NCBI GenBank assembly: GCA_000092065.1
Contig: CP000587.1
Reading direction: 5' to 3' (one strand)
Length of the DNA stretch: 64,000 bases
Source: Ostreococcus lucimarinus
Taxonomy: Eukaryota
A program made the position numbers and the translations under genes. The notes under the pieces were generated by a model. It made no database searches, was not told the origin of the DNA, and saw nothing but the letters and a program-made list of their open reading frames with translations. Below, piece by piece: positions 865 through 60,835 of this stretch (its first letter is position 1; each line of letters begins with the position of its first letter).

Positions 865-944
865 AGCGCGACGCTTCGCAATCGTAGCACACCAGTAGCA
901 ACAGTAATTCACCAGTATCAGTAGTTGTTGTAGTTCTATCATCG

Positions 945-2060
945 TCAAGCCGCGAGCGCCGTCGGCCGTTGTGGCCGCGTCGCTTTGCAATCGGGGAATT
1001 TCCGCGACACGGCCACGATTGGGTAGTGATCGCTGAGAGCCAACCCCCGAGCGTCTCGACACATCGCATGGTGTACGTAGCCAGAGTCTGCGTGTCTGTG
1101 GTGCAGCGGCACGCCGCGCGTGACCATCGATGAGAGGTCGATGACGTAGTCGAGGACGACTTTCGGCACTAAATCGATGTATCGCGACTCGCCGAGACAC
1201 GGCAACACGACGTGCCGCCAACGCGCGACGGGAAAGGTCAAACGAAAACTTCGGTCGACACCTCTCGTCGATCCTTCTCGTCCAGCGATCGATCCATCGA
1301 TATCAGTCAACGGCGCCATGAGATCGACGGATCCGGGAAATTTGTTCATCAGATCTTCGTACTCGCCCGAGCCAGCGACGATGTTCAAGTCGCCGACGAG
1401 CATAATCCGATCGACCTCGTACCCGTTACCCGCGCATTCCATCTCCGCGCGATGCACCACGTCCTTGATGCACGAGATCTGCTTCGCACGCGTGTCTCGC
1501 CCGGATGACCAGTAGTCGGACTGCAGGTGCGTGTTGAGCACGATGGCGACTCGCGTCGTCGGGTCCTCCGCCGCAGTCAAGCGCAAAAAGCTCGTGCTCA
1601 CGCCTTTGGTGAACGACAATCTCTCGACCCCTTTCGCCGGTAGCGCAGTGAAGTGGTTGCACACCATCGAGAATTTTGACGCGATCATCAACCCGCATCG
1701 GGCGCTCGGGGCGTAAACGAATGGAAACTCCTCGCGCAGCGCCACTTTCAAAGCCTTGGCCGCTTCGACTTCCCACATTTCTTGCAAACACACGACGTCG
1801 ATCGCGTCCGCTCGAGAACAGCACAGAATGTTATTCGCCATCGCGTGCGCGCGCTTCGCGATGTCCGTTCTCGTCCCTCCTTGACCTGCAAACACGCCCG
1901 GCAACATTTGCGCGTTCCACGTGCACACCTTCAACAACGAGTTCATCCCAGCGGGGCGCTCGCGCGCGAGCGCGTCGTCGAGGGCGCGCGTGCGGGCGTC
2001 GAGCGCGTGTGTGTGAGCGATATCTACGGTCGACGGCGGCTGATTCGCGTGCGGTACCAT
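945..2060 (-). CDS. endonuclease/exonuclease/phosphatase (EEP) family protein, neutral sphingomyelinase-like
   Basis: ORF 945..2168. EEP signature blocks LKVCTWNAQ, DVVCLQEM, LVGDLN, SDHYPI. Start placed at internal Met MVPHANQ (2060). The upstream part of the ORF is low-complexity. Confidence 0.6.
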   Translation of the reverse strand: MVPHANQPPSTVDIAHTHALDARTRALDDALARERPAGMNSLLKVCTWNAQMLPGVFAGQGGTRTDIAKRAHAMANNILCCSRADAIDVVCLQEMWEVEAAKALKVALREEFPFVYAPSARCGLMIASKFSMVCNHFTALPAKGVERLSFTKGVSTSFLRLTAAEDPTTRVAIVLNTHLQSDYWSSGRDTRAKQISCIKDVVHRAEMECAGNGYEVDRIMLVGDLNIVAGSGEYEDLMNKFPGSVDLMAPLTDIDGSIAGREGSTRGVDRSFRLTFPVARWRHVVLPCLGESRYIDLVPKVVLDYVIDLSSMVTRGVPLHHRHADSGYVHHAMCRDARGLALSDHYPIVAVSRKFPDCKATRPQRPTALAA

Positions 2061-2333: not shown

Positions 2334-2853
2334 TTAGAAGACGCCGAGAGTGATCGCCTTGTCGATCGGGAGGCAGGCACCGATGCCCATCCAAATCGCG
2401 TAGAAGGTACCGACCAAGAAAACCGTCATCGCCAACGGTCGGCGGAACGGGTTTTGGAACTTGTTGATCGACTCGAGGAACGGCACGGTGATCAAACCAA
2501 CCGGCACGGCAGCCATGGAGAGGACACCGAGGAGCTTGTTCGGGATCACGCGAAGCGCGTTGAAAGTCGGGAAGAAGTACCACTCCGGCAAAATTTCGAG
2601 CGGCGTGGCGAACGGATCCGCCGGCTCGCCGAGCTGGGTCGGTTCCATCACCGCGAGGCCGATGCACAACGCGATGGTACCGAGGATAACGACCGGGAAA
2701 ATGTAGAGTAAATCGTTCGGCCACGCCGGTTCGCCGTAGTAGTTGTGACCCATGCCCTTGGCGAGCTTGGCGCGGAGCACCGGGTCGGACAAGTCGGGCT
2801 TCTTCGTCACCGACGCGACGACTTGGAAGTTACCGCGAGCCTTCGGGGAGACA
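2334..2853 (-). CDS. petD: cytochrome b6-f complex subunit IV (PetD), exon 2 (mature protein plus end of transit peptide), nuclear copy
   Basis: The translation [47 protein letters not shown]...[10 protein letters not shown]...[12 protein letters not shown] is about 80% identical, by eye, to plastid PetD from plants and algae. Codon usage is GC-rich. The in-frame upstream [14 protein letters not shown] reaches a CGCAG acceptor at 2854-2855. Confidence 0.85.
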
Positions 2854-3231
2854 CTGCGATCGCGCGCGAATCGTCGCTTCGTCAGTCTTCATTCATTCGC
2901 CCTCGCGCGCGCGTCCACGCCGCCGTCACCGCCGCGCCGATCCTCATCCGTCGTCTCGCGCGTCCGCGCGCGCGCGTCCGTCGTCCCGCGCCAAACCCTA
3001 TCTTATCATGGGGGGATCGCGATCCCGTCGCGCTTCGTCGCCCGCCCGCGCGTCGCGCGCCGCGCCGACCCCCGATACCCGCCCGCTCCACCGACGCATC
3101 CCTCGCCATTCGCATCGCATCGCGCGTCCCGCGCGTCCCGCGCATCGTTTCGCGCGTCGCCTCGCGCGTCGTCATCCGCCCTCGATCGCGTCCCGTTCGC
3201 GTCGCGCGTCGCCCATTCATCCCCCACGCAC

Positions 3232-3353
3232 CGCAACGGATCGAACCCCCTCACGGCGCCGAACTGCGCGCGCGCCGCGGTGGATTTTTGCGTCGCGCGC
3301 GCGCGCGCGACGACGCGCGGTCGCGCGACGTTGGAGAGCGTTTGCGCGATCAT
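3232..3353 (-). CDS. petD: PetD exon 1: predicted chloroplast transit peptide (MIAQTLSNVARPRVVARARATQKSTAARAQFGAVRGFDPLR)
   Basis: ATG at 3353. A/R/S/T-rich peptide without acidic residues. Ends with 2 nt followed by GTGCGT donor at 3231-3226, phase-compatible with exon 2 (CG+T = Arg). The 378-nt intron has an ACTGAC branch motif about 25 nt before the acceptor. Confidence 0.6.
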
Positions 3354-7655: not shown

Positions 7656-9214
7656 TCAAATCGGTGTCCCGAAGTCCGCGTCGACTGGGTTCTTCCAGTG
7701 GTTAAAGTCGTTGAATTGTTCCTCCGCCACGCTTCCCGTCACCGGGCACGTATCTTCAATGGGCGGGAACATTTCGTGCGCGAGCTCGTTGACCTCGGAC
7801 AACGTGTACTGCTTCACTCGCTTTGTCGTCTCGCACACGACCTCGCCTTTCGGGTTGATCGTGAATACGCGGTGTTGAGGCACGCCCACGGCGAGGTAAG
7901 ACTCCACGTCTGTATCTCGGTTCCCGAACCCTGCATGAAAAGGATTCCACCCGGGTGGGAACAAGTTGCGAATGTCTTGCAAGCATCGAATCTTGAACCG
8001 CTGAGGGTTCCTCGTGACGACTTCGCGAAACAACGCTTTGGACAAAGGATCCGGCGCGCACATCACCGGCCCTTGCGCGAGCGTCTTGTCGCCCTGACGA
8101 AGCGACGACAGGTACTTTCTAGTTCCCGAAGCGTGCGAAATCGCTCGCGAAGTCAAGAACATCATCTTGTATCCGTTGTCGGTGATGTTGCTGTAAAGCG
8201 ACGCGACACCGTCGTGACTCCAGTCTTTACCGACCATCGGTGCGAGATGGCCGAGGACGTCACTCTTCGTGATCGTCCCGTCGACATCACTGATGACGAG
8301 CTTTATGTTCCAATCCCATAAATACACGAACGCCGAAACCTCTTGCAATCCCCACACGCGCGAGTTGAACGCGAACGAGATGGTATTGGTGCCGGGCTTG
8401 AGATCGAGCGACATCACTTCATCTTGCGTTAACTGCACGCGACGTACGCGACGACCTCGTCTCGGCGACGTCAACGCGTCGAAACCAACCGATCCGCCTG
8501 GCGCGTTGACCAAAGGCGACGCAGGCGCGTTGACGCGACCGTTCGAGGTCAACTTCCAGTTCGATGGCAAAGGAGTGCCGAACGCGAGGTGCGCCAAGAC
8601 GTGCGGTGCTGCCGCGCTCCAAGGTAATGCCTTCGCGGGTGGTCCCGCCGGACTGCGTCGCGGTCGCACGACGAGCCCAGAATGTCCGATCAGCCCAGGG
8701 TGCGCCTTGAAGTGCTCGAGCGTCACCAAGTGCTTGTCGAACTCCTCCACTTTCCCCCCGCACAAGCTCAACTCCACGGCGGGCAACACGGTCATTCCGG
8801 CGCTTTGTAACGCATCCACCGCCGTCGCCACTTCCTCTTCGGACATCGTACGTTTCCCGTCTTCTACGTCCCCGCTCGAACCCGACGTACTCGGCCTCGT
8901 CGTCTTCGGCGGCGTCTCTAATCGAAGCGCCGACAGCGCCTCGACCGCCCCGACCTCGTCTTCATCCCCGGTTCCTAACTCTATATCGCTTTCCTCATCT
9001 TCGTCCTCGTCGTCGTCGAAATCGTCCACACCGTCCGCGAAGTACGCCTCGCCGTTGGATCCGAGCCGCATCGTCAGCTCGCTCAGCGTCCCGTTCACCG
9101 TCACCGTCACCACCTTGGCTTCGCGTCCTCGCAGGAACGACTGCGCGTTACCGAATCGCACGTAGAACGGACTCGCCCTGAGTCCTCCGTCGGGTTGTTT
9201 GATCACCAGCGTGT
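7656..9214 (-). CDS. lipin / phosphatidate phosphatase (PAH1), exon 2
   Basis: N-LIP block IKQPDGGLRASPFYVRFG. LNS2/HAD catalytic motif ISDVDGTITKSD, followed by FLTSRAISHA and GFGNRDTDVESY. Acceptor CGCAG at 9215-9216. Confidence 0.8.
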
Positions 9215-9295
9215 CTGCGAGCGACGCGCGAGGCGTTGATTAGTCGACAGTTGGATCTCTCGCGCGGGTCGCGTTCGCGTTCGCGTCGTTCGTAC

Positions 9296-9428
9296 CTATA
9301 GCGCCGCTCGCGCTCGGGACGAGCGTGCTCACGGCGGCGACGGAGCCGCCGACGGTGCCCACGGCGACGGAGCCGGCGACATCGCGGATCTGGCGAAGCC
9401 GCGAGGCGAGGGTCTTGTTGTCCCCCAT
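9296..9428 (-). CDS. lipin exon 1 (MGDNKTLASRLRQIRDVAGSVAVGTVGGSVAAVSTLVPSASGAI)
   Basis: ATG 9428. Ends ...GCT ATA G | GTACGAAC. Splices to exon 2 giving SGAI-DTLVIKQPDGG, which matches the conserved lipin N-terminus (LSGCIDIIVVEQPDGS). The 81-nt intron contains (acgcgaacgcgaacgcg). Confidence 0.6.
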
Positions 9429-10981: not shown

Positions 10982-11086
10982 CTGCGTCGGCGACGAAACG
11001 AAACGGCGCGATGTCAGTCTTCGAGATCGAGCGGACGCGCGCGCGTCGAAAGCACACCCCGACGCATCGCGAGCGATATCGCGCGC

Positions 11087-11121
11087 GAATCGCGAATCGC
11101 GAATCGCGAATCGCGAATCGC
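11087..11121. repeat. (gaatcgc)5 microsatellite inside the VTE5-like intron
   Basis: Five tandem heptamers read directly. The six-frame ORFs spanning it translate as repeated DSRFAIR. Confidence 0.8.
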
Positions 11122-11141
11122 GTTTATCAATCGAAACGCAC

Positions 11142-12010
11142 CCGCTCGCGACGCCGAATCCGCCCGCCACGAACCCCGCGCTCCCAGCGAAACTCTTCTC
11201 CTCGTTCCACGGCAGCGCGTTCCCTTTCCCGAACTTCCGCCCGACGAGATCCGCGAATCCATCACCGCCGCACATCATCGCCATCGCGACTATTCCAATC
11301 GGATTCGTCCGCCAATACGCGCTCGTGCACGCGGCGAGCACCGCCGTGTAATACAACGGCCCCTTCAACAGCTCCTCCTTCCCCCCCTCTCGGCTCACGG
11401 CCCGCACCGCGCTCGCGTTCTTAATCATCCCCGACCCTATGCCGAATAATCGCACCCCCTGCGCCAGCGGGATCGCCGCCGCGAAGAATCGCGCCGCGCC
11501 GCTCGCGCTAAACAGCGGCCACGTGCACGCGAAAAACGTCCCGCTCGTCACGTGCACCAACTTCCTCGACGTCGTCGACGCGAACGCCCCGCGATCGGCG
11601 AGCGCGTCGAATGCTTTCACCCACACGAACGCGCCGATCGTCGTGAGCGCGCTCGCGGCGACGTCGCGCGGCGTTTCGTCGACGGAGGCGACAAACTGCG
11701 CGACGGCGTCAAAGACCATCGGCGCGGACGCGCGCGCGTCGATCGCGCGACGTCGCGCGCGAGAGAGACGTCGCGCGCGCGCGCCGCGCGTCTCGCCGCG
11801 CGACGGCGCGGCGCGCGCGCGCGAGGCGCGAGTCGTCGCGCGCATGCGCGCGGGGACCGTGCGGCGCGCTTTGACGCCGCACTCACGCGCGCGCGCGCCG
11901 ACGCGACGATCGAACGCGCGCGAGGGCGTCGAACGCGATGTGCGTCGCGCGTCGAGCGCGCTCGAGCGACGCGCGAGGCGCGAGGCGAGGCGCGCGCGGA
12001 CGGTTTTCAC
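11142..12010 (-). CDS. phytol kinase (VTE5/CTP-dependent polyprenol kinase family), exon 1 with transit-peptide-like N-terminus
   Basis: R/S/A-rich N-terminus, then LLKGPLYYTAVL and MMCGGDGFADLVGRKFG. Exon ends ...GCGAGCGG | GTGCGTTTCG. The 160-nt intron contains (gaatcgc)5 and an ACTGAC branch site. Confidence 0.7.
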
Positions 12011-12102
12011 CGCCGCCGCCGACCGCGACGACCGACCGACTGACGACGAACGACGACGACGGCGACGCGACGCGCAGGTTTAAGCGACGGGACTGGAACT
12101 AC

Positions 12103-12197
12103 ATGCACGCCCGCGATGGGGACTCGTCGAGCGATTCGGATTCGGTCGAGTCCGCGGGACCGGAGGCGCGGTCGAGCGATGAAGAAGCGAGCGCGAG

Positions 12198-12228
<31 letters not shown>

Positions 12229-12840
12229 GAAGAAGCGGCGACGAACGAGGAGGCGACGTCGACGCGCGAGAGGTATGATGACGCGCGAACGATGATTGAA
12301 GACGCGTTAAAAGGAGATTCTGACGCGAAGAGCATCGCGGCGAAGTGTCGGGCGTGTCCGGGGACGCTGTTGTTGAGCGCGGCGAATATGCGCGCGCACG
12401 CGGCGAGCAAGCGACATCGAAAGAATTTGGAAAAACTCGGAAGGGCGAACGACGAGACGTTCGTGTGTTTTTATCCCGCGGTGCGCGAGGATGATGGAAT
12501 CGTGAGCGACGGGGAGGCGGAGACGCACGCTGAACGCCTGGCGCGATTGCGGGCGCAAAAAATTTTACGCTCGGCGGAGGGCGAGCGGGCAAAGGGTGGA
12601 AAGTTTTCGCTCGATCAGTTTGATTCTTCCGGTGACGAAGCCTCTGATGATGAGTCGGACGGCGATGACGACGCGAAAATGACGAAACGCTTGGCGAAGA
12701 AGGAGTTCGCGAGAAAAGTGAGCGATAGCGCGCCCAAGGAGAAGGAGAAACGTTCGAGGCGTCACGCGCAGAGCAAACGCAAATCCGGCAAGAGCAAGCC
12801 TGGGAAGAGGCAGCGCATGGCGATGAAGAGTGCGACGTGA
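12103..12840 (+). CDS. acidic, lysine-rich C2H2 (JAZ/U1-like) zinc-finger protein, nucleolar-type
   Basis: CRACPGTLLLSAANMRAHAASKRHRKNL (C-x2-C-x12-H-x5-H). Poly-D/E tracts and a KR-rich tail. Start at MHARDG (12103). The ORF extends upstream to 11938, antisense to the VTE5 5' end. Confidence 0.5.
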
Positions 12841-14345: not shown

Positions 14346-16643
14346 TTAAGGATGCCCGTGGAGCTCGCGCGCCGAGTCCCAGAGGGCGGTGGCGCGGAAC
14401 ACGCGCGCGCGAGCGGTGGCGAGGGCGTCGGCGGCGACGCGCGCGTCGGCGGCGTCGGCGAGACGCGCGACGAGCGCGCGAGAGGCGAGGAGTTGCGCGC
14501 GCGTCGGCGTCAACTCGGCGCGCGCCGTCGGACTCGACGGCCCGCGACGCGTGTCGGCGGAGTCGAAGTCTCGAAGTAAGCTTTCCGCTCGGGTGTGCGC
14601 GGCGAGGGCGTAGACGTCGAGCGTGCGTCGTCTGGACGCGCGCCAAATTCGCGCGAGCTCGCGCAGGTGCGAGTACGACGTGAGCTCGCGGACGTCGGCT
14701 TTGCCCAAAGCGAGCGCGTCGGCGTGTTCGGGTGGTTCGACCAACTGGAGCGTCGAAAGATATTCGGATAGCGCGCGAAGTGCTTTCGTTTCGACGCGCA
14801 AGCGCGCCGAGTGCTTGTCGCGCGAAACGACGTCGCCGTCGTACGAGTCCGTTTTGAGCGACTCTTCGTCGGCGCCGTACATCGCGACGTACTCTTCCTC
14901 GTCCTCAGTATCTGTTCCGTTCGCTGCGAAAACATCCTCTTCTTGATCCCACACATCGTCGTCTCGAGTGGGCGCGGCGTCTTCGCGGTCGGCTAGTAAA
15001 ATTGGCTCAGCCTCGACGAAGTGCGCTCGCGCCACGTCGAGAAGCTCGACGAACGGCTTGTACGTGTAATCGGCCGTAGTCGCCAGCTGTAGCATGATTT
15101 CCTGATGCTTTACAGCTCCCTCGTCGTCCGCGCCGCACACGAATCGTCTGAAATCGTCCTTGTCGACGCGAAACCGATCGTTACTCGAGCCGTCCGGCTC
15201 GACGTTCTCCTTGAAACAAAACCCGTATCGCAAGAGCAAATCTGTGTTCCCTTTGGCTCCGTACGTGATGTGCAAGAACTCGCCGGCTTTAAAATTGCGA
15301 AGCGCCTTCATCGTGACTTGCCCGTTTCCGTTGAAGCCGTCGGAAGAAACGTACGACACCTCGCGCGGTCGTTTGTGATTGGCAAAGTCCATTCCGGGAG
15401 CCATGAAGATGCCGCAAAAGTCCATTCTTCGAAACATGTCTCGCCATGGATCATTCGAAACCGGGTTCGGCGACTGAAACGAACGCGACATGACAACCGC
15501 ATACGCCCACCGAAACTCCCCCGCCGTGATTTCATTGCCCCTGGAGCCCGTTGGCCCTCGACTGGACGAGTTTCCATACGTCACCTGGGACACAATTTGA
15601 CTATACGTAAGCTCAACCGCGCGCTCGATTCGGTGACGCTCGAGAATCAGCCAACGTAAGTCGGCGTTGCACCGAGGCTCGTACCCGTACGCCGCTTTGC
15701 TTTCGCCGTATCCGAATAAATTGACGAAATAAGGCATCGGGAGGTACGCCGGAATGAAGGCTTGATACTCTTCGAGCGTCGGCAACTTGCTCAAATACTC
15801 GTAATGCGACGAACTTTTACCCTTTTTCTTCTCCAACGCGAGAAAGCAACACAACAACGTTTCATCGAGCGTCAAGTGTAACTGTTCGCTCGTCGGATCG
15901 ATGACGTACCCGTCGCCTTCAAAATCTTCCTTTTTCGCCCACGGAGCCAGCGCCCTCGCGCGACGCGTTCTTCGCCATTGTCTCAATTCCTGCCTCGACA
16001 CCAGCGTTCGCACCGCGGCCGACGACTGCACGAGAAGCCAATACCTCGCCAACTCCGCCAACGCCGGCGTTCGCGCGCACGACTGCGCGGTGATCAACTG
16101 TCGCGGTCCGCGCAACTCCAGCACCGTCTCGCCTCTCGCGGCGTCTCGCGTAAACCGCAACCCGTACCCGCGCATCTCCCTCGCCCCCGCGCGCCCCTCA
16201 TCGCGTTCACCGTCCTCGAACGCTTCCCTCGCCACCTCCAACAGCGCCTTCGCCCCTCGACGATCGTCCTCCGAGTACGCGACTCGCGCGCGAGTCGCTT
16301 CAACCGTCTCCTCAACCGTCTCCTCAACCGTCGCGTCCGCCTCCGCGCGCCGATCGCGCTCGATCGCCGCCTCCGACGCGCGCGCGCGCACCTCGATCGC
16401 GCGCGCCGATCGCGCGCGCGAGAGATCGAGCACCCATCGCGCGAACGCGTCGCGCGCGTCCGGCGCGTCGTTCGCGCCGTCATCTCCGGCGCGCGTTCGA
16501 CGCCGTTTCCTCCCGCGCGCGCGCGTCCGCGCGCCTCGCGCGCGCGCGCGCGCGTCCGAGGCGTCCGCGCCGTCGTCGCCGTCGCCGTCGTCGTCCGCGC
16601 GCGCGCGCGCGCGTCCGAAGAGTCGCGCGAGCGCGCGCATCAT
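14346..16643 (-). CDS. SET-domain protein-lysine N-methyltransferase (Rubisco LSMT / SETD3/6-like)
   Basis: SET core NHKRPREVSYVSSDG...KAGEFLHITYGAKGNTDLLLRYGFCF. Acidic C-terminal region. Start at MMRALARLFG (16643). The longer ORF (to 17381) is low-complexity. Confidence 0.75.
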   Translation of the reverse strand: MMRALARLFGRARARADDDGDGDDGADASDARARARGARTRARGRKRRRTRAGDDGANDAPDARDAFARWVLDLSRARSARAIEVRARASEAAIERDRRAEADATVEETVEETVEATRARVAYSEDDRRGAKALLEVAREAFEDGERDEGRAGAREMRGYGLRFTRDAARGETVLELRGPRQLITAQSCARTPALAELARYWLLVQSSAAVRTLVSRQELRQWRRTRRARALAPWAKKEDFEGDGYVIDPTSEQLHLTLDETLLCCFLALEKKKGKSSSHYEYLSKLPTLEEYQAFIPAYLPMPYFVNLFGYGESKAAYGYEPRCNADLRWLILERHRIERAVELTYSQIVSQVTYGNSSSRGPTGSRGNEITAGEFRWAYAVVMSRSFQSPNPVSNDPWRDMFRRMDFCGIFMAPGMDFANHKRPREVSYVSSDGFNGNGQVTMKALRNFKAGEFLHITYGAKGNTDLLLRYGFCFKENVEPDGSSNDRFRVDKDDFRRFVCGADDEGAVKHQEIMLQLATTADYTYKPFVELLDVARAHFVEAEPILLADREDAAPTRDDDVWDQEEDVFAANGTDTEDEEEYVAMYGADEESLKTDSYDGDVVSRDKHSARLRVETKALRALSEYLSTLQLVEPPEHADALALGKADVRELTSYSHLRELARIWRASRRRTLDVYALAAHTRAESLLRDFDSADTRRGPSSPTARAELTPTRAQLLASRALVARLADAADARVAADALATARARVFRATALWDSARELHGHP

Positions 16644-18531: not shown

Positions 18532-19401
<870 letters not shown>

Positions 19402-19577: not shown

Positions 19578-20696
19578 ATGGCGAACCGCTACGGCGACGC
19601 GGGCGATGAATCTCCCATAACGTCCGCGCGCGCGAGCGATCTCGCGCGCGCGCGCGTCGACGGCGCGCGCGGCGAGAGCGCGAACGCGTTTTCACAATCT
19701 GGGGGGACAAAAGAAGATGGCCCACGCTCGCGGAAAAAACGCGCGGTGTCGCCCATCGACGCCATCTGGCAGCCCGAAGACCTCGTCGTGGGACGAAAAT
19801 CGGTCGTCCCGAAGGAGTTGTCGACGTCGATGCGCGCGCTGTCGGACATCGGGAACGCGGGCGCGGCGCCCGCGCGTGAGGCTGACGCGCCGAACGAAAT
19901 AGACGTGGAGTCGTACTTGCTCGGACAAAAGCACGCGCTGGAATCGGCGTTCGATAAATCGTTACCGCAGAGACAGTTATTGGGGGCGTTGCAGCTCGCG
20001 CTGCACGACGTGCGCGAGAAGACGAGCAAGTTGGAGGCGTCGAGTTCGGAAATCGAAGGCGCCGTTCGGCGTTCCGAGGGCGTCCAAAATCAAGTGACGG
20101 GCGACGTTCGCGCGCTGACGACGTCGACGATTCCGGCGATTGAACGTGCGATCGGCGAGCTGCGATCGCGCATGGATGCGGAGGAACGACGGAAGACGAT
20201 GTCATTGACGGCGTTGGTGAAGGAGACGGCGATGCGAACGCTCTTCGGCGTCGCTTCGCTCGAGACGGCGGTGGGGAACTTCACGCGATCCGTGCTGTTC
20301 CCTCCAATCAATGAGGGCGATGCGTCGGCGGTGGACGCGGTGGACAAGGTCGATGCGACTCCAGAGTACGCGCAAACGCTCGGCGCGATTTTTCTCGTAA
20401 CGGCGCTCGAACTCGCCTCGAGAACGAACGAGTATATTCGCTCGAGAGCACCGCCGAGCGTGCAACGGACGACGACGACGTTTACGTGGGGTTTAAATGC
20501 ATGTCGCACACTGGTGTGGGCAGCGGCTGCGATTGAATGTCTACAATTCACGAAAGTGCGCTGTCACGCGCTCGCGTCGATCGCGTACGCAGCCGCGACG
20601 GAGACGACGGACGAAGTCAAAGAAGTGAACACCAGCGACGACGACACCCCCGGCGTGCCGACAGGCGTCATCGCGCTCGCGGACGACACGAGATGA
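19578..20696 (+). CDS. hypothetical protein (coiled-coil region, no recognisable domain)
   Basis: ORF track 372 aa with ordinary amino-acid composition. No motif recognised. Confidence 0.35.
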   Translation: MANRYGDAGDESPITSARASDLARARVDGARGESANAFSQSGGTKEDGPRSRKKRAVSPIDAIWQPEDLVVGRKSVVPKELSTSMRALSDIGNAGAAPAREADAPNEIDVESYLLGQKHALESAFDKSLPQRQLLGALQLALHDVREKTSKLEASSSEIEGAVRRSEGVQNQVTGDVRALTTSTIPAIERAIGELRSRMDAEERRKTMSLTALVKETAMRTLFGVASLETAVGNFTRSVLFPPINEGDASAVDAVDKVDATPEYAQTLGAIFLVTALELASRTNEYIRSRAPPSVQRTTTTFTWGLNACRTLVWAAAAIECLQFTKVRCHALASIAYAAATETTDEVKEVNTSDDDTPGVPTGVIALADDTR

Positions 20697-20868: not shown

Positions 20869-21579
20869 ATGAATAGAACCAATCAAATCGCACCAGTCAG
20901 CAGAACGCCGTCGCGCGCGACCGAGCGCGCGCGCGCTGAGACCTCGGTGATACGCGGTTCTGTTCTGAGCAGTTCTTCGTTTGACGCCGTGGACAACGCC
21001 GCGCTGGAGACGCCCTCGGACGAGCATTCGTTCGATACCGATGAACACGTTAACGTGGATGACGGCGACGACGTCGATGACGCGCGATCGACGCCAGAGA
21101 CGGTGGAGGAGACGCAGCGTTCGAACGGTGCTTCGTTGCACGCCTCGGACGCGACTTCGGCGACGACGAAAGGCGACGAGTCGCGCGATGAGGTTTCGCT
21201 GGAAGAAAATACGGACCCGCGAGCGAACGAAACGAACCCGACGAAGAAGCCGACGGGCGAGACGGTGACGTGCGGGCTCTCCAAGAACGTCGATTTCTTA
21301 CTCGTGAAGACTGGCCACGTGAAGTCGATATCAAAGCGTAAGGCGAAAACAACCACGGTGTCGCAGAAGAAACCGTCGAACGAGGTGGCGCTGGTGGAAA
21401 TGCCGCGCGCATCGCGCACGCTGACGACTGCAAACGACAAGCGCTCGACCGCACACACGTGGAAGTCGTGTCCGTTTGCTATTGCGCAAGGATCCGAGCC
21501 GGCGCCCGCCGGATCGCAACAGTGCGGTAACTGCAGAGCGTTGGATTTGTTTTATCTTGATTCGTCGTGGAATCAATGA
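20869..21579 (+). CDS. hypothetical acidic protein
   Basis: ORF track 236 aa, D/E/S/T-rich. No recognisable domain. Followed by an AT-richer 3' island at 21580-21826. Confidence 0.3.
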   Translation: MNRTNQIAPVSRTPSRATERARAETSVIRGSVLSSSSFDAVDNAALETPSDEHSFDTDEHVNVDDGDDVDDARSTPETVEETQRSNGASLHASDATSATTKGDESRDEVSLEENTDPRANETNPTKKPTGETVTCGLSKNVDFLLVKTGHVKSISKRKAKTTTVSQKKPSNEVALVEMPRASRTLTTANDKRSTAHTWKSCPFAIAQGSEPAPAGSQQCGNCRALDLFYLDSSWNQ

Positions 21580-21826: not shown

Positions 21827-22402
21827 CTAGCAGCAAGAGCTCTTCGCGTTGACGCTGCGACCTTCGCCCGGTCGCACGGTGTTTCCTCGCGGACCCGCGT
21901 TCATTTGCGGTTGGCTCGCCATGCGGTTCTTAATTTCGTTCGCCATGGTCATGAAAGCTTGCTCAACGTTCGTCGCATTCTTCGCCGACGTCTCTATGAA
22001 CGGGATCCCAATCTCATCCGCGAACGCCTTCGCCGTCGCGTAATCCACCACCTTTTGACTCGTCAAGTCGCTCTTATTCCCCACCAGCAACTTGTTCACA
22101 TTTTCGTTCGCGTAGCGATCGATCTCGTTCAACCATCCCTTCACCGCCTCAAAACTCTCCATGTCGGTCACATCGTACACGACGATGATGCCGTGCGCGC
22201 CGCGGTAGTACGACGACGTGATCGTCCGAAATCGTTCCTGCCCCGCGGTGTCCCAAATTTGAAGCTTGATCGTCTTACCCTCCAGCTCCACCGTGCGAAT
22301 CTTAAAATCAACCCCGATCGTCGAGATATACGTCCCCGTGTACGTATCGTCCGCGAAGCGAAGCAACAGACACGACTTACCGACGCCCGAGTCGCCGATG
22401 AG
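21827..22402 (-). CDS. RAB1: Rab1/Ypt1 GTPase exon 2 ([33 protein letters not shown]...WDTAGQERF...NKSD...SAK...SSCC*)
   Basis: All Rab G-boxes present. C-terminal CC prenylation motif. Acceptor CGCAG at 22403-22404. Confidence 0.85.
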
Positions 22403-22705
22403 CTGCGCGCGCGCGTCGATAGATCCGCCCTCGTCAGTCCTCGCGTCTCCCTCGCCTCCGTTCGCGCCTCCCGCGCCCGCGCGTCGATCCCGTCCTCGTC
22501 CGCGTCGCCTTCGCTCGCGTCCGCGCGCGCCCGTCCCTCGATCCCTCGCGTCACCGCGCGTCGCGGTCGAGCGTTCGCGTCGCGACGATCGCCCGTCTCA
22601 ACGGCACGCGGCGCGTTCGCGCGCGCGTCGCGTTCGCGCGCGCGCGCGCGCGTCGCGCGCGCGCGCGCCGAGGCGTCGGTCGTCGCGGCGACTCGTTCGA
22701 CGCAC

Positions 22706-22741
22706 CAGGAGCTTGAACAGGTAATCGTACTCGGGATTCAT
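22706..22741 (-). CDS. RAB1: Rab1 exon 1 (MNPEYDYLFKLL)
   Basis: ATG 22741. Exon ends CTG | GTGCGTCGAACG. Splicing gives the canonical [18 protein letters not shown]. The 303-nt intron ends ...gactgacgagggcggatctatcgacgcgcgcgcag. Confidence 0.7.
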
Positions 22742-23052: not shown

Positions 23053-24252
23053 ATGACGAACGCGCCGATGGACGCCGACGGCGCGGGCGCGAGGGACGAC
23101 GGGGACGGGCGCACGGCGAATCTGGTGGTGACGAAACCGAAGGACATCGGCGACGCGGATTTCGCGAATTATTTTTGCACGTACGGGTACCTGTATCACC
23201 AGAAGGACATGCTGGAGGATCAGAATCGAATGACGGCGTACAGCGACGCGGTGCGATTGAATCCGGATTCGTTCAGGGGGAAGGTGGTGCTGGACGTGGG
23301 GACGGGATCTGGTGTGCTCGCGATGTGGGCGGCGCAAGCGGGGGCGAAGAAGGTGTACGCGGTGGAGGCGACGCACATGGCTGTGCAAGCGAGGAAAATC
23401 GTCGCGGCGAACGGGCTGAGCGACGTCGTGGAGGTGATACAAGGATCGATGGAGGAGGTGGAACTGCCGGAGAAGGTGGACGTGATCATCAGTGAATGGA
23501 TGGGGTACTTTTTATTGCGCGAGTCGATGTTTGATTCGGTGCTGTGCGCGAGGGATAAGTGGATGAAGCCGGGAGGGGCGATGTTTCCGTCGCACGCGAA
23601 GATGTATCTGAGCGCGATTAAGTCGAACAAGAGTGGGCAAAAATATCAAGAGCTTCAAGAGAGCTTGAACGTGTGGGAGGATTTCGTGCGGAACACGCAC
23701 GAAAATTATGGCATAGACTTGTCGTGCATGAACGGCGAATACGAAGATGAGCAAAAAGAGCACTATTTGAACACCGCGGCGTGGGTGGACATTCACCCGT
23801 CGCAAGTCATGGCTAAGCCGTTTACGTTGGCGAGCTTTGACTTGAACACGTGCTCGATGGACGACATCAAAGTTCTTCGCGACGTCGACTTCAAGCTGCG
23901 CCTGTTCGATGGACTCGCAGGGCCTTCGGGGGAGACGCGCGTCGGCGCGTTCGCGGGCTGGTTCGACGTCACGTTCGCGGGATCCAAGGAGAACCCGTGC
24001 GAGAACCCGGTCGAGCTCACGACAGCACCGGACGCGAACGGCGCCACGCACTGGGGTCAACAAGCGTTCTACATGTTTCCTGAGGTATACGCCAGCGATG
24101 GTCACTTCATTTCTGGTAAGTTTGACATGGTTCGTCGCAAGGAAAACCAACGCCTGTACAGCGTTCGGATGAACTGGACGCAGTCCGACACGGACGCTGG
24201 GCCGCCGAACGAGTCCATCGGCACGCGTGGGATCGTTTGGCAGATTGAGTGA
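23053..24252 (+). CDS. protein arginine N-methyltransferase (PRMT)
   Basis: SAM-binding VLDVGTGSGVLAMWAAQAGAKKVYAVEAT, then the ISEWMGYFLL double-E loop and a THWGQQ-type THW loop. Single exon. Confidence 0.85.
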   Translation: MTNAPMDADGAGARDDGDGRTANLVVTKPKDIGDADFANYFCTYGYLYHQKDMLEDQNRMTAYSDAVRLNPDSFRGKVVLDVGTGSGVLAMWAAQAGAKKVYAVEATHMAVQARKIVAANGLSDVVEVIQGSMEEVELPEKVDVIISEWMGYFLLRESMFDSVLCARDKWMKPGGAMFPSHAKMYLSAIKSNKSGQKYQELQESLNVWEDFVRNTHENYGIDLSCMNGEYEDEQKEHYLNTAAWVDIHPSQVMAKPFTLASFDLNTCSMDDIKVLRDVDFKLRLFDGLAGPSGETRVGAFAGWFDVTFAGSKENPCENPVELTTAPDANGATHWGQQAFYMFPEVYASDGHFISGKFDMVRRKENQRLYSVRMNWTQSDTDAGPPNESIGTRGIVWQIE

Positions 24253-26320: not shown

Positions 26321-26456
26321 CTATTTCGAGCGACGGCGGCGTCCATCGGTCAGTCCACGCCCGCGCGTCGCGCACACGACCGCGATCGTCTCGAGATTTC
26401 GCGTCAGATCCAACAGTCAACTCGACGATGATTCGTCGCTCGCGTCGCGCGCTCAC

Positions 26457-34588: not shown

Positions 34589-34922
34589 CCGCCGCTTCGG
34601 CGCGCGCGGCGAGGACGGCGACGGCGGTTGATCATCCTGCGCGCGCGCGTCCGTCCGTCAGTCCTCTCGTCGCGTCCGCGCGCGGTCGCGCATCGCGGCA
34701 GCGCGTCCCAACGGCATTCTCCATCGACGCCGCGCCGCGTCGCGCGCGCGCGCCTCGTCGTCGCGCGCGTCGGCGCGCGCACCTCGTGTGCCCTGCTCCG
34801 CGACGCCGTCGTCGCGAGCGGCGTCTTCGCGCGCTTGCGCAGCTCGACCATGACGCGCGCGCGACTGCCGCGAGCGCCAGTGCGCGACGGGGCGCCGTCG
34901 CGGCCCGCCGTCGCGCGAACGC

Positions 34923-37205: not shown

Positions 37206-37217
37206 GTGCGTGATCGA

Positions 37218-37242
37218 GCGACGCGACGCGACGCGACGCGAC
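37218..37242. repeat. (gcgac)5 microsatellite in the ubiquitin-RPS27a intron
   Basis: Read directly. Confidence 0.8.
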
Positions 37243-37473
37243 CGCGCGCGGACGAGGGATGGCGACGGTCGATAGATTAGGGTTTTCGACGATGCGACGT
37301 CGACGGCGCGCGCGCGGACGCGCGCGCGCGCGCGAGGCACGCGCGGTGCGCTCGAAGATTTTCGCTCGCGCGCGACGTTCGGGGAGGGACGACGGGCGCG
37401 AGTCGACGGGGGTGGTGCGACGCGATCGATGATGGATCGGACGAGGGACGGGGGACGCGGGACGCGGGACTGA

Positions 37474-37935
<462 letters not shown>

Positions 37936-44169: not shown

Positions 44170-44241
44170 GGGCGCGCGCGCGTCGCGCGAGGGCGCGCCG
44201 CGCGACAACGGCGCGCTCGACGACGACGGCTTCGTCACGGT

Positions 44242-44282
<41 letters not shown>

Positions 44283-44618
44283 ATTTCGCACTCGCATTCG
44301 TTCGCGTTCGACGCGTTTCGCGCGCGCGTTTCGCGCGTTTCGCGCGCGCGACTGACGCCGCGAGCGCGTCGCGTCGCAGGTGGCATCGCGCGACGCCGCC
44401 GCGCGCGAGCGCGACGCCCTCGACGCCGCGCATCGCGCCGCGGACGCCGCCATCGACGCGCTCGCGGACGCGCAGCCGTACTGCGACGACCCCGAGGTCG
44501 CCGCGACGCTCGCGCGCGCCGCCGCGCTCGACGCCGCGGACGCCGCGCGCGACGCGAGCGACGCGAGCGATGCGGCGCGCGACGCGAGCGACCCGCGATA
44601 GCGCCGTGTGAACGAACG

Positions 44619-44680
44619 AACGAACGAACGAACGAACGAACGAACGAACGAAAAAACGAAAAAACGAACGAACGACACGG
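44619..44680. repeat. (gaacgaac)n / (cgaa)n microsatellite with an A-rich tail
   Basis: cgaacgaacgaacgaacgaacgaacgaacgaacgaaaaaacgaaaaaacgaacgaacga, in the intergenic region between divergent genes. Confidence 0.8.
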
Positions 44681-44693
44681 CGCGGTCCGCACA

Positions 44694-45101
44694 ATGACGC
44701 GCGCGCCCGTTCCGTGCGACGCCTGCGCGCACGGCGTCGCGCGCCTGTACTGCGCCGCGGACGACGCGAAATTGTGCCTGCGATGCGATCGAACGGTGCG
44801 CGACGCGCGAACGCGAACGCGATTTTCGACACGCCGCCGGAAAGCGGGCGAGGGCACTTTACGCGGGAACGACGCGCGGCGCGCGCGCGCGCGCGACGAG
44901 GACGCGCGCGGGGGCGGGATTTCGGTGACGCGTATTTTGTGCCACCGTCGCGACGCGTCGAGGAGGTCGACGACGCGCGTCCGCGGGATCGCGCGACGAC
45001 GTTCGTCGCGGAGGCGTTCGTTACGAATGCGTGAATTGTCGACGACTGACGACGACGACGACGACGCGATGGACGCGCGAGCAGGTGCACAACGCGAATA
45101 A
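44694..45101 (+). CDS. CONSTANS-like B-box zinc finger, 5' exon(s) (boundaries unresolved)
   Basis: B-box CDACAHGVARLYCAADDAKLCLRCD at the N-terminus. The remainder of the ORF is low-complexity and probably intronic after an unresolved donor. Confidence 0.45.
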   Translation: MTRAPVPCDACAHGVARLYCAADDAKLCLRCDRTVRDARTRTRFSTRRRKAGEGTLRGNDARRARARDEDARGGGISVTRILCHRRDASRRSTTRVRGIARRRSSRRRSLRMRELSTTDDDDDDAMDARAGAQRE

Positions 45102-45386
45102 ATTCGCGGAAAAACACTCGAGGCGTTGGTTGTGCGAGATGTGCGCGCACGCGTGCGCAGAGGTGCGAGAGAGGCGAGGCGAGGCGAATTCGAACGGCGG
45201 TTGAGTAGTTAGGGCTCGGACGAGGACGCGGCGAGACGCGAGAAGGCGAGGGCGAAGGCGCGCGCGCGAACGGGGACGCGATGGGGCGTTTCGAACTCGC
45301 GAGAGACGATGTGCGAGGATGTGGTGTCGACGAGAGACTGACGAAACGTTCACGTCGCGCGACGACGATCGGCGGAAACGTAGGTT

Positions 45387-47060: not shown

Positions 47061-47455
47061 CGTGTGCGGCGCTCTTTGCGTCGCGACGAAGCGCGGCGAC
47101 GCGAAGCGACGTTTCTCGGACGCGCCGCGATCGATCCACACCGCGACAAAGAGACGCGATCGATCGCATTCGACGACGACGACGCGGACAATTTTGTGTC
47201 CGAGGATTCAGCGGTGCGCCCGTCGCGCGCGCGCGCGGCGACGCGACGCGCGCGCGGCGACGCGACGCGCGCGGCGAGGGCGACGAAGACGAAGACGCGA
47301 ACGAGGGCGCGAACGACGCGCGCGGCGAGCGACGCGCGCGCGAATACGGCGAACGCGCGCCGCGCGGTCGAGCGCGGCGAGCGCTATTGCGCGCGCGGTC
47401 GGAAGACGTCGGACTGACGCGCGAACGCGGCGCGCGCGCGCAGAGGAAGAGGGAG

Positions 47456-59888: not shown

Positions 59889-60835
59889 GTCGCCCTTCGC
59901 GTCGTCTCGTCGCTCGCGCGCGCCGCGTTCGGGTACCCTCGCAGCCCGTTGGCGAAGATCGCGATCGACGCCACCGCGGCGAGGACGGTGAGGTCGTTCC
60001 GGCGCCCCGGCGTCATCGTCTGCCGCGCGCGCGGATCAGCAATCGCGCGCGCGGGCGCGCGCGCCACGCCATGCGGTAAACAGTGTCGTACACTTTCCGG
60101 ATGATGCGCTATATAAAACTCCACAATACACCCGTATACCCGTATATCCAATTAGACGCGCGTGCGGATTTCAAAGCCCATCGGAGCTGTCGCGCGGGCA
60201 CCGCGCGCCGCATTGCACGACGCGGTCGCGTCCGACGCCACGCGCGCGCGCGAAACGCACGCGACGCGCGCCCGCGTAAAGCGCGCACCGTAAATCTCTC
60301 GCGCGCGATCGCCGATCGTCGATCGCGCGATCGCGCGGGAAACGCACGACCGCGCGACGCATCGTTCGCAGCGCATCGCGACGCAACGCATCGATTCCGC
60401 GCGACGTCGCCATGCCCGGCGCGCGCGCGCCTCGAGCGGTGCACGCGCGACAGGACGCGATGACGCCGTTCGGGGATTTTATCTGCGTCCCCGTGCGCAC
60501 GATCGAGGACGTGGGCGGGGAGGAGCGCGACGCGAGAGCGCGCGGAGAGGCGCTCGACCACGAAGTGCGGTGCGTGATTTGAATGCGCGCGCGATGCGAC
60601 GAACGCGCGGCGCGGACGGCGATGCGAGGAGGCGCGACGCGCGACGACGCGCGGATGCGAAGACTGACTTAACGTCGTACCGGTCGATGGCGCGCGCGAT
60701 CGCAGGGCGTACAAGCTCGGGAAGAAGAAGCGGAGTTACAACCAAGTCGAACTCGCGTTTGAACGCCAACGGGAGGGACGGGCGAGCGCGGGCGAGCGCG
60801 CGCGAGAGGGACGCGGCGCGAGGATATTTGAAGCC

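Follow-up and report, generated by a model that had tools for sequence, protein, structure and literature searches.

The question raised by the Rab1 locus of Ostreococcus lucimarinus is whether the intron which interrupts this gene, together with the introns of neighbouring genes carrying the same splice and branch signals and, in some cases, short tandem repeats, is related to mobile introner-like elements or belongs to the ordinary introns of this alga. We addressed this question within the 64,000 nucleotides surrounding the gene, hereafter referred to as the window. The interval from 21827 to 22741 corresponds exactly to the Rab1 gene, which is encoded by the minus strand with its ATG at 22741 (Table 1). 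The spliced protein is identical to a RefSeq entry, and the spliced junction is found as an exact match in a public contig. In Ostreococcus tauri, the orthologous intron comprises 260 nt, occupies the identical position and can be aligned at its ends. An initial sequence-only reading had described the P-loops of both Rab proteins as being split by introns. This applies to Rab2, where the first junction lies inside the motif, but not to Rab1, the junction of which is located four residues ahead of it.

Altogether, 15 introns were assigned to the approximately 49 genes of the window (about 0.3 per gene), six by means of spliced contigs, four via exact RefSeq matches and five as predictions; outside 6-33 kb this inventory is based on motif and reading-frame reasoning, which favours conforming introns and may miss non-conforming introns or those in untranslated regions. 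The intron-poor green picoalga postulated from the bare sequence is thus indeed at hand. A junction was regarded as spliced if the exact 40 nt spanning it were matched in intron-less public contigs originating from independent sequencing runs. Such matches were obtained for Rab1, both introns of Rab2, lipin, RPN11 and phytol kinase. Contigs from runs SRR847307 and SRR847308 are 100% identical to the window, some of them being spliced, and the approximately 13 kb of the window lying under spliced contigs contain the predicted introns only. Nine gene models, either spliced or single-exon, are identical to proteins of strain O. lucimarinus CCE9901 in RefSeq; because no gene positions are on record for the chromosome concerned (783,246 bp), RefSeq support refers to exact protein identity only. 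For the petD-like and the phosphatidate cytidylyltransferase introns no spliced contig was found among the public contigs. All eight introns named in the initial reading (petD, lipin, VTE5-like, both of Rab2, Rab1, RPN11 and ubiquitin-RPS27a) could be rebuilt with the boundaries it had described, the spliced products of six of these genes (Rab1, Rab2, petD, RPN11, ubiquitin-S27a and phytol kinase) being identical to RefSeq proteins, and the window contains no fewer than seven introns or candidates beyond these. The assignment of the CTP_transf_1 gene at 33.3-34.9 kb as VTE5-like had to be abandoned. This gene codes for phosphatidate cytidylyltransferase and possesses a 5' intron of its own; the VTE5-like gene is that of phytol kinase at 10.8-11.7 kb.

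Table 1. Rab1 exons and the 15 introns or candidate introns of the window (signals are given as donor..branch..acceptor; slashes mark splice junctions; contigs are those containing the spliced junction).
Feature	Position	Strand	Length (nt)	Sequence or signals	Location and repeats	RefSeq identity of spliced protein; contigs
petD-like (nuclear) intron	2854..3231	-	378	GTGCGTG..GACTGACG..TCGCAG	122 nt past ATG	XP_001418831.1 (213 aa)
Lipin intron	9215..9295	-	81	GTACGAA..GACTAATC..TCGCAG	133 nt past ATG; (cgaacg)-type repeat at start	three contigs
Phytol kinase (VTE5-like) intron	10982..11141	-	160	GTGCGTT..GACTGACA..ACGCAG	76% into coding sequence; (CGCGAAT)5.6 at 11084-11122	XP_001418836.1; two contigs
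Candidate intron, unnamed gene	11940..12077	+	138	GTGCGTC..GACTGACG..GCGCAG	splits start codon, AT/G	
Rab2 intron 1	18578..18680	+	103	GTGCGTC..CGCTGACC..GCGCAG	P-loop split GDT/GVGKS	XP_001418612.1; two contigs
Rab2 intron 2	18821..18948	+	128	GTGCGAA..AACTGACG..GCGCAG	(GCGAAC)7.2 at 18823-18865	as Rab2 intron 1; same two contigs
Rab1 exon 2	21827..22402	-			ends SSCC, stop	
Rab1 intron	22403..22705	-	303	GTGCGTC..GACTGACG (22432-22439)..GCGCAG	phase 0, after codon 12	XP_001418839.1 (203 aa); one contig
Rab1 exon 1	22706..22741	-	36	MNPEYDYLFKLL		
RPN11 intron	26321..26456	-	136	GTGAGCG..GACTGACC..AAATAG	127 nt past ATG	XP_001418840.1; six contigs
Phosphatidate cytidylyltransferase intron	34637..34782	-	146	GTGCGCG..GACTGACG..GCGCAG	69 nt past ATG	XP_001418845.1 (478 aa)
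Ubiquitin-S27a intron	37206..37504	+	299	GTGCGTG..GACTGACG..GCGCAG	22 nt past ATG (MQIFVKT/LTGK); (GCGAC)5 at 37218-37242 and (GGACGCG)4.6	XP_001418619.1
Candidate intron, 97-aa gene (44168-44601)	44240..44379	+	140	GTGCGCG..GACTGACG..TCGCAG	(CGCGA)8	prediction only
Candidate intron 1, CONSTANS-like B-box/CCT gene	44796..45084	+	289	GTGCGCG..GACTGACG..GAGCAG		
Candidate intron 2, CONSTANS-like gene	45163..45383	+	221	GTGCGAG..GACTGACG..ACGTAG		prediction only
Candidate 5'-UTR intron, Usp-domain gene (ATG at 47456)	47214..47443	+	230	GTGCGCC..GACTGACG..GCGCAG		motifs only
Intron, 885-aa protein of unknown function	60570..60705	+	136	GTGCGTG..GACTGACT..TCGCAG	158 nt past ATG	XP_001418623.1

In O. 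lucimarinus, introns are recognised by a 5' splice site of unusual strictness, GTGCGT or, in its extended form, GTGCGTG, and by a likewise strict branch site, ACTGAC or extended GACTGACG, which is located 21-42 nt ahead of (C)GCAG, TAG or CAG. The introns of the window clearly display these features. Their donors start with GTGCG in 13 of 15 cases (GTGCGT in seven), the exceptions being GTACGA in lipin and GTGAGC in RPN11. The branch motif (G/A)ACTGAC is likewise present in 13 introns, in eight of them as the full GACTGACG, and is replaced by GCTGAC in Rab2 intron 1 and by ACTAAT in lipin. Hence, the uniformity of signals claimed on first inspection is real, but the CTGAC core assigned to every intron reads CTAAT in lipin. 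The distance from the branch point A to the 3' end of the 15 introns amounts to 21-42 nt. The acceptor side is devoid of a polypyrimidine tract as the stretch leading from the branch point to the acceptor contains 46% pyrimidines and 10.7% T. Intron lengths range from 81 to 378 nt and GC fractions from 0.61 to 0.80, the GC fraction of the window being 0.57-0.70 throughout with no low-GC block. None of the 15 introns bears any resemblance to U12-type signals ((A/G)TATCCTT donor, TCCTTAAC branch). Removal of a GT...AG segment is established by exact spliced junctions for six introns, supported by RefSeq protein identity for four and predicted for five.

Such regularity could in principle result from hand selection or from chance matches of short motifs in GC-rich DNA. 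Indeed, neither GTGCGT alone (32 and 34 copies on the two strands compared to 35 and 38 expected) nor CTGAC alone (40 and 24 compared to 50 and 50) is enriched in the window, and the additional candidates of our inventory emerged from motif searches. GACTGAC, however, occurs 18 times instead of the approximately 8 times expected, an about twofold enrichment, with 12 of the 18 copies preceding, by 20-45 nt, an AG which could serve as acceptor beside a coding exon. The copies at 10224, 27211, 30417, 54526 and 55953 show no intron context, and the GACTGACG at 31844 (minus strand) was rejected as part of an intron as it sits within a continuous reading frame (ATRLTTQ). Above all, the six introns which were set purely by comparing contigs with the genome obey the same pattern, which is therefore not due to hand selection. 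Published genome-wide data derived from ESTs are in agreement, so that this objection, raised already by the initial reading against itself, is exceedingly improbable and can be regarded as refuted. For 319 EST-confirmed introns of O. lucimarinus outside chromosome 2, Irimia & Roy (2008) found ACTGAC in 87% and GACTGACG in 66.5%, as well as GTGCGTG at 4.8 bits as the 5' splice site (PMC2483917), and Verhelst et al. (2013) described such canonical introns across the Mamiellophyceae (PMC3879977). The intron "grammar" of the window is the consensus already published for O. lucimarinus (PMC2483917).

Compared with these canonical introns, those studied here share the GTGCGTG donor, the GACTGACG branch, GT-AG ends, low number per gene, GC-richness and size range (81-378 nt versus a published median of 111 nt and mean of 168 nt; PMC2483917, PMC3879977) and differ in nothing essential; what the window adds are intron positions, repeats, orthology with O. 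tauri, an intron within a start codon and one loss. The introns of BOC1, the low-GC outlier region on chromosome 2 in Ostreococcus, occur in the same organism and are mostly GT-AG as well. In contrast to the introns of the window with their strict branch motif, their lengths of 81-378 nt and 61-80% GC, they measure 40-65 nt, are AT-rich, numerous per gene and without a recognisable branch motif. Taken together, we regard the introns of the window, with considerable confidence, as canonical U2-type spliceosomal introns of the ordinary kind, inherited vertically and such as occur on the normal GC-rich chromosomes of O. lucimarinus. The uniformity of their signals would then reflect the splicing machinery of the species working on few introns rather than kinship among the introns.

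Kinship is what an origin from introner-like elements would imply, according to which mobile elements carrying their own splice signals spread through the genome and are, or gave rise to, the repeat-bearing introns; the uniform signals and the internal repeats would both be explained in this way. Introner elements were reportedly described in Micromonas by Worden in 2009, Simmons in 2015 and van Baren in 2016, and are also treated by Verhelst et al. (2013). These elements (IE-A to IE-D, also D-IE and ABC-IE) resemble the introns of the window in that they are spliceosomal, reside in a related picoalga and lie in sense orientation within genes. Splice and branch signals are uniform here, the IE-C class of Micromonas RCC299 uses the GACTGACG branch motif (PMC3879977), and O. 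lucimarinus possesses the phytol kinase intron which O. tauri lacks, all of which would be in line with mobile elements. Yet, Micromonas introners form families of tens to thousands of members which are similar along their length and whose positions are not common to relatives, while the likeness of the O. lucimarinus introns is limited to signals and composition and most of their positions are those of O. tauri. Within the 64 kb, the best pair of intron interiors reaches a score of 86 compared to 70-116 for the best pair in dinucleotide-shuffled sets, just as the initial reading had perceived no similarity beyond the splice signals. BLAST searches of each intron against the window yielded short low-complexity matches only, spread over both strands and every class of sequence. 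The introns of Rab1 and phosphatidate cytidylyltransferase can be aligned over 162 nt with 69% identity, but the core score of 65 falls inside the shuffle null, and we therefore treat this alignment as the consequence of common composition and common 3' signals.

Orthology leads to the same conclusion. The introns of Rab1, Rab2 (both), RPN11 and lipin and the one splitting a start codon are found at identical positions in O. tauri, with alignment scores roughly 3-8 SD above those of shuffled controls. The O. tauri counterparts comprise 91 nt in lipin and 115 nt in RPN11, the latter with the donor GTGCGTC, and within the syntenic 21 kb every gene annotated as intron-containing in O. tauri is orthologous to an intron-bearing gene of the window (RPN11, Rab1, Rab2, the AT/G gene and lipin). 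Thus, six of the seven testable introns are orthologous, and the seventh, that of phytol kinase, is common to three Ostreococcus lineages which share its site and phase with diverged interiors. In addition, orthologous introns lack the repeats, and published genomes of Mamiellophyceae other than Micromonas appeared to be free of introner elements (PMC3879977). An introner origin, as considered in the initial reading, appears largely refuted by these comparisons for the introns of the window and, with regard to the repeat-bearing ones, is very improbable.

The distribution of the introns within their genes deserves separate consideration. Introns of intron-poor genomes are usually clustered just behind the start codon. 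In the window, 13 of 14 coding introns are located 2-186 nt past the ATG and within the first 30% of the coding sequence (probability about 2e-6 under a uniform model), with first exons as short as had been reported (22, 36, 46, 122, 127 and 133 nt) and with ubiquitin interrupted at MQIFVKT/LTGK. The asserted 5' bias holds for these introns but not for that of phytol kinase, which, at 76% of the coding sequence, cannot be called 5'. This sole 3'-located intron is precisely and scarlessly absent in O. tauri. A close relative of O. tauri and a third Ostreococcus lineage (two contigs) both keep it without the repeat array, and inspection of its junctions by eye revealed no target-site duplication. 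Judging from this distribution among lineages, its absence in O. tauri would fit a loss. All six testable 5' introns, on the other hand, are retained in O. tauri.

Two processes, singly or together, may account for the 5' bias: introns near the 3' end may have been lost preferentially, and those near the 5' end may have been kept preferentially. In intron-poor eukaryotes such as yeasts, the 5'-biased intron distribution is attributed to cDNA-mediated intron loss. O. lucimarinus resembles these organisms in its few introns, their clustering near the start codon and its strong splice signals, and the one precise, scarless 3' intron loss in the sister species resembles the yeast-like process as well, with the difference that here a single event is seen by sequence comparison. 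The disappearance of the phytol kinase intron would accordingly be consistent with the reverse-transcription-mediated 3' loss proposed initially. Selective retention of promoter-proximal introns on account of expression or translation control would explain the bias equally well. In favour of retention instead of such loss, Lanier et al. [quoted passage not shown] Moreover, intron bearers of the window include the housekeeping genes of ubiquitin-S27a, Rab1, Rab2, RPN11 and petD, a start-codon-splitting intron is conserved in O. lucimarinus and O. tauri, and the six 5' introns are kept in both species. Against retention, the scarless absence of the sole 3' intron is the expected outcome of cDNA recombination. 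We consider it less likely than not that retention in place of 3' loss accounts for the bias, and the two are not mutually exclusive. Intron-hosted small RNAs as a cause of long-intron retention were discarded since Rfam and tRNA searches came up empty in the introns: Rfam gave nothing at gathering scores and a single chance-level match outside the introns at E<=1, and no tRNA was found.

The repeats noticed at the outset, (gaatcgc)5, (cgaacg)n, (gcgac)5 and acgcgaacgcg, are all present, the last one in imperfect form within the Rab1 intron. Introns harbour a disproportionate five of the nine strict microsatellites while making up 4.5% of the window; among non-coding ones the share is five of seven (p about 0.01, with thresholds chosen post hoc). 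Tandem repeats cover 45% of intronic compared to 22% of intergenic bases of the window, again with thresholds chosen post hoc, so that the enrichment which the initial reading had suggested to look for is observed. In the orthologous phytol kinase introns of two other lineages, however, the heptamer occurs as a single copy or is absent, and the (GCGAAC)7 of Rab2 intron 2 is missing from its O. tauri counterpart. As the intronic microsatellites are species-specific, they probably represent products of replication slippage, which would build up in those parts of a very compact genome that are under the least constraint. In environmental variants, read-through translations differ near the phytol kinase heptamer array, suggesting that the array may be polymorphic in the environment.

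Neutral slippage does not fully cover the strand-specific vocabulary of the introns. GACGCG is present in all 15 of them, 30 times per kb in sense compared to 2.7 times per kb in antisense orientation (about 11-fold), and its 67 intronic copies exceed the 42.5 +/- 4.7 of dinucleotide shuffles by about 5 SD. Together with the missing polypyrimidine tract and the accumulation of strict microsatellites in introns, this could indicate that the repeats and the sense GACGCG/GCGAAC-rich interiors are functional, either by binding a splicing factor which replaces the polypyrimidine tract or as spacers ensuring a minimum length. We deem this unlikely. The enrichment of GACGCG is mostly compositional given the number of copies that shuffles produce, the repeat arrays are missing from orthologous introns and vary in the environmental translations just mentioned, and four-fold degenerate coding sites are equally G-rich and T-poor on the sense strand (G 0.51, T 0.095), which makes this bias largely genome-wide rather than intron-specific. 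T-depletion was for the same reason dismissed as an intron-specific trait. The notion that GACGCG/GCGAAC-rich sense interiors, in which A prevails over T, constitute a binding platform for intron identity in place of the polypyrimidine tract, the microsatellites being its expansions, appears quite unlikely to us. Slippage remains our preferred explanation for the repeats themselves.

Among the candidate introns, the one splitting the start codon of an unnamed gene, for which no spliced O. lucimarinus contig was found, has a counterpart of 118 nt at the same AT/G position in the O. tauri annotation. Since this arrangement is conserved in two species, translation of the gene in O. tauri depends on splicing. 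A metagenome scan, performed with no positive control, gave 0 matches each for the predicted junctions of this intron and of CONSTANS-like intron 1. Removal of the latter joins CDRT/VHNANKFAEKHSRRWLC, whereupon the Pfam domain zf-B_box crosses the junction with E=4.7e-4, which is below the curated cut-off. Of the four GTGCG donors in the vicinity of intron 2 of the same gene, only the one assigned to it maintains the frame into the CCT exon. The second exon predicted for the 97-aa gene shows coding potential, and the exact protein of this gene is absent from the protein collection searched. The contigs fetched for the Usp-domain gene are unspliced. Probable gaps in the public annotation of O. 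lucimarinus thus include the 97-aa gene, which is apparently unannotated, and the CONSTANS-like gene, which would lack its B-box exons; the lipin model, which disagrees with the spliced transcripts, and the intron-split start codon are further probable points.

In summary, the observation made at the Rab1 locus and its surroundings is confirmed, while its initial interpretation is partly supported. To intron biology as such the window adds little as its splice and branch signals, its paucity of introns and the lack of introners in genera other than Micromonas had all been published previously. For O. lucimarinus, the GTGCG...GACTGAC...AG pattern constitutes a reliable intron finder for the genome, and the six retained 5' introns set against the one lost 3' intron in O. 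tauri could serve as a seed case for testing across the genus whether intron loss is 3'-biased.

The interval 21827-22741 (-) holds a single gene, which codes for a Rab1/Ypt1 GTPase exactly matching XP_001418839.1. Its intron bears the branch motif GACTGACG at 22432-22439, with 31 nt from the branch A to the 3' end. The 5' 432 nt (1-432) of L010, the spliced Rab1 contig, find no match in the window; by our reading this part encodes an RRM protein resembling the small cap-binding protein, and the contig has probably been misassembled into a chimera.

Mapping of all 64 kb by coding potential and Pfam scans gave about 49 genes and 15 introns or candidates, or about 0.3 introns per gene; roughly one gene in four is interrupted. 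The published share of intron-bearing genes is 16-20% (PMC2367439). The GC content is 57-70% all along the window and is typical for normal chromosomes. In the top support class (six introns) the exact 40-nt junction is present without the intron in public assembled contigs, while in the second class the spliced protein equals a RefSeq protein. Exact matches to O. lucimarinus CCE9901 RefSeq proteins were obtained for Rab2 (XP_001418612.1), petD-like (XP_001418831.1), phosphatidate cytidylyltransferase (XP_001418845.1), RPN11 (XP_001418840.1), ubiquitin-S27a (XP_001418619.1), phytol kinase (XP_001418836.1), the 885-aa unknown protein (XP_001418623.1) and the Usp-domain protein (XP_001418621.1). 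The window thereby maps to a 783,246-bp chromosome of this strain, and the guess of an intron-poor green picoalga made from the sequence alone was right. As neither an Rfam family nor a tRNA is found anywhere in the window, known small RNA hosting does not explain the retention of the longer introns.

Introns and candidate introns of the window, parts of the Rab1 gene, and phytol kinase introns on two contigs of other Ostreococcus lineages (contig coordinates)
Feature	Position	Strand	Description	Support
Rab1 exon 1	ATG at 22741	-	36 nt, MNPEYDYLFKLL	
Rab1 intron	22403-22705	-	303 nt; GTGCGTC start, GCGCAG end	spliced-contig junction
Rab1 exon 2	stop at 21827	-		
Lipin intron	9215-9295	-		spliced-contig junction
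Phytol kinase intron	10982-11141	-		spliced-contig junction
Rab2 introns (two)	18578-18680, 18821-18948	+		spliced-contig junctions
RPN11 intron	26321-26456	-		spliced-contig junction
petD-like intron	2854-3231	-		spliced protein = RefSeq
Phosphatidate cytidylyltransferase intron	34637-34782	-		spliced protein = RefSeq
Ubiquitin-S27a intron	37206-37504	+		spliced protein = RefSeq
885-aa unknown protein gene, intron	60570-60705	+		spliced protein = RefSeq
AT/G gene candidate intron	11940-12077	+		prediction only
97-aa gene candidate intron	44240-44379	+		prediction only
CONSTANS-like gene candidate introns	44796-45084, 45163-45383	+		prediction only
Usp gene candidate 5'-UTR intron	47214-47443	+		prediction only
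L026 phytol kinase intron	872-980		109 nt, GTGCGTC...CTCTGACC...GATAG	
L027 phytol kinase intron	about 1945-2047		103 nt, GTGCGTC...GACTGACA...CACAG	

The uniform splice signals described from the sequence alone proved accurate. A GTGCG donor opens 13 of the 15 introns (exceptions: GTACGA in lipin, GTGAGC in RPN11), and (G/A)ACTGAC forms the branch in 13, including eight with the full GACTGACG, the remaining two having GCTGAC and ACTAAT. Over all 15 introns, 21-42 nt separate the branch A from the 3' end; the acceptors are chiefly (C)GCAG, in addition to ATAG, GTAG and AGCAG. By themselves the short motifs show no enrichment across the window; GACTGAC is present in 18 copies compared to about eight expected, 12 of them in intron context. 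Two observations argue against selection bias. All six introns defined by spliced contigs alone fit the pattern, with no further splices in the approximately 13 kb of the window under these contigs. In addition, the annotation of the syntenic 21-kb O. tauri locus (L024), reached through a Rab1 protein identical to that of the window, places introns in RPN11, Rab1, Rab2, the AT/G gene (see below) and lipin, all orthologous to intron-bearing genes of the window, the range of each remaining fully contained gene equalling three times the product length plus the stop codon.

The claimed 5' bias likewise holds. The 14 coding introns are preceded by 2, 22, 36, 46, 69, 72, 102, 122, 127, 133, 158, 180, 186 and 578 exonic nt, and 13 of them lie before the 30% mark of the coding sequence (by our own arithmetic, a probability of about 2e-6 if positions were uniform). 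The introns of Rab1, Rab2 (both), RPN11, lipin and the AT/G gene occupy the same position in O. tauri, where the signals match those of the window or differ slightly (donors GTGCGTC, GTGCGCG, GTACGCC and GTCCGTC; branches ACTGAC, GCTGAC or ACTGAT), with ACTGAG instead in Rab2 intron 2; alignment scores of orthologous introns of both species exceed those of shuffled nulls.

The positional exception is the phytol kinase intron, 76% into the coding sequence. This gene presents a clean case of intron presence and absence inside the genus Ostreococcus. In O. tauri, GCGAGCGG/ATTGCTC (slash, junction) is uninterrupted precisely at the O. lucimarinus junction (L024 17863-18759). Among homologues taken from environmental assemblies, L026, from a close relative of O. 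tauri (87% identity), has the intron at the same site and in the same phase, and L027, from a third Ostreococcus lineage, has it there as well, while it is missing in O. tauri, several other lineages and more distant relatives. The simplest reading of these sequences is that the intron is old within Ostreococcus, with a precise loss in O. tauri and probable losses in further lineages. On this one clean example, irrespective of mechanism, the proposed 3'-biased loss of introns is a compatible but unproven idea.

The sense strand of the introns contains A 0.175, C 0.305, G 0.413 and T 0.107, and the stretch from branch point to acceptor has no polypyrimidine tract (46% pyrimidine). GACGCG occurs in all 15 introns (30 per kb sense versus 2.7 per kb antisense) with 67 copies observed versus 42.5 +/- 4.7 in dinucleotide shuffles. 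Four-fold degenerate sites of all coding sequences in the window show a strong asymmetry of strands with respect to the direction of transcription (sense strand: G 0.514, C 0.29, A 0.10, T 0.095; GC skew +0.27), which shapes intron composition too. Since these sites are similarly G-rich and T-poor, intron composition mostly reflects a genome-wide sense-strand bias; specific to introns are just a surplus of A and a modest excess at the level of words, the latter partly due to tandem arrays.

These arrays are indeed denser in introns than in intergenic DNA. TRF arrays scoring at least 30 cover 45% of intronic, 22% of intergenic/UTR and 9.7% of coding bases, and strict arrays (period 4-12, at least 3.5 copies, at least 90% match) cover 6.2%, 0.8% and 0.1%, respectively. 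Introns, 4.5% of the window, contain five of the nine strict arrays and, within non-coding DNA, five of seven versus 24% of bases (p ~0.01, own arithmetic; thresholds post hoc, sample small). The heptamer (CGCGAAT)5.6 of the phytol kinase intron has one gcgattcgcg as its counterpart in L026 and is absent in L027; the O. tauri counterpart of Rab2 intron 2 lacks (GCGAAC)7. In near-identical environmental variants, read-through translations diverge around the heptamer array, one with a frame change, which suggests that its length is polymorphic. Because the arrays are not conserved in orthologous introns and variants differ around the heptamer, we attribute them to slippage in the DNA under least constraint, the intergenic spacers of this genome being short and largely functional. 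Their intronic enrichment is a minor and probably neutral feature. The largest simple repeat outside introns is (GAAC)16.5 at 44610-44675, where 93 nt separate the 97-aa gene from the CONSTANS-like gene. A relatively AT-rich 59-nt unit, unlike the CG-rich repeats elsewhere, is repeated three times with 96% identity at 48655-48831, within the short spacer that separates the Usp gene from the convergently oriented gene at 48846-49850.

In the AT/G gene (11938-12840, +) the candidate intron, 138 nt and open in frame, appears to divide the start codon, exon 1 supplying two coding bases only. The conserved N-terminus M(F/L)KRRDWNY begins immediately past the acceptor, and the O. tauri annotation has a matching structure (260 aa, 901-nt range, 118-nt intron, AT/GTCCGT...GCGCAG/G); in databases the gene is represented solely by an unspliced 300-aa reading. 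At 44168-44601 (+) there is probably an unannotated gene with two exons, whose ATG is separated by 19 nt from that of a divergent Reeler/cytochrome b561 gene (44148). It would encode a 97-aa protein whose MGARAS start is a possible N-myristoylation site; the exact protein has no match in a 15-billion-sequence collection. The CCT-motif gene at 44694-46406 (+) seems to have a B-box zinc finger (CDAC...CDRT/VHNANKFAEKHSRRWLC) encoded in two exons farther upstream, which would make it CONSTANS-like. The 400-aa spliced model has no match in the protein collection, and gene calls on the unspliced contig L014 give the 339-aa last-exon ORF only. The candidate 5'-UTR intron 12 nt upstream of the Usp ATG has perfect signals (GTGCGCC...GACTGACG...GCGCAG) and overlaps the 5' end region of a divergent LYR-family gene. 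The 563-aa lipin model (7656-9428, -), supported by three spliced contigs, and the 399-aa PRMT (23053-24252) match only Logan assemblies and have no exact match among NCBI proteins; the RefSeq models therefore probably differ. The gene for petD (cytochrome b6f subunit IV), normally chloroplast-encoded, is here nuclear and intron-containing (2334-3353, -). The N-terminal extension of its product looks like a transit peptide, and similar proteins are present in Micromonas transcriptomes. By tblastn, a SET-domain gene (14346-16643, -) and two unnamed genes (19578-20696, + and 20869-21579, +) have no detectable counterpart in the syntenic region of O. tauri, whose ABC1-GATA spacer measures about 870 nt only; the three genes are either fast-evolving or lineage-specific.

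A relation of the repeat-bearing introns to introners, mobile elements known from Micromonas, had been considered. With donor and branch-to-acceptor region stripped, local alignment of all 105 intron pairs on both strands yielded a mean score of 37.7 and a maximum of 86, compared to a mean of 33.9 and a top pair of 70-116 per set in dinucleotide-preserving shuffles. BLAST of the introns against the window returned just short CG-rich matches scattered over coding and intergenic DNA on both strands. The window thus harbours no repeat family, and the introner link is not supported; this all-against-all comparison covered the window's 15 introns. According to Verhelst et al., who describe canonical introns of this kind across Mamiellophyceae, introner elements seemed absent from published Mamiellophyceae genomes other than Micromonas, for which they report AG/GTGCGT and NCTGAC. 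From 560 introns of O. lucimarinus confirmed by ESTs, Irimia & Roy 2008 (PMC2483917) reported an "atypical consensus GTGCGTG" 5' site (4.8 bits) as well as ACTGAC in 87% and GACTGACG in 66.5% of introns outside chromosome 2. The intron pattern of the window is the already known canonical intron type of O. lucimarinus.
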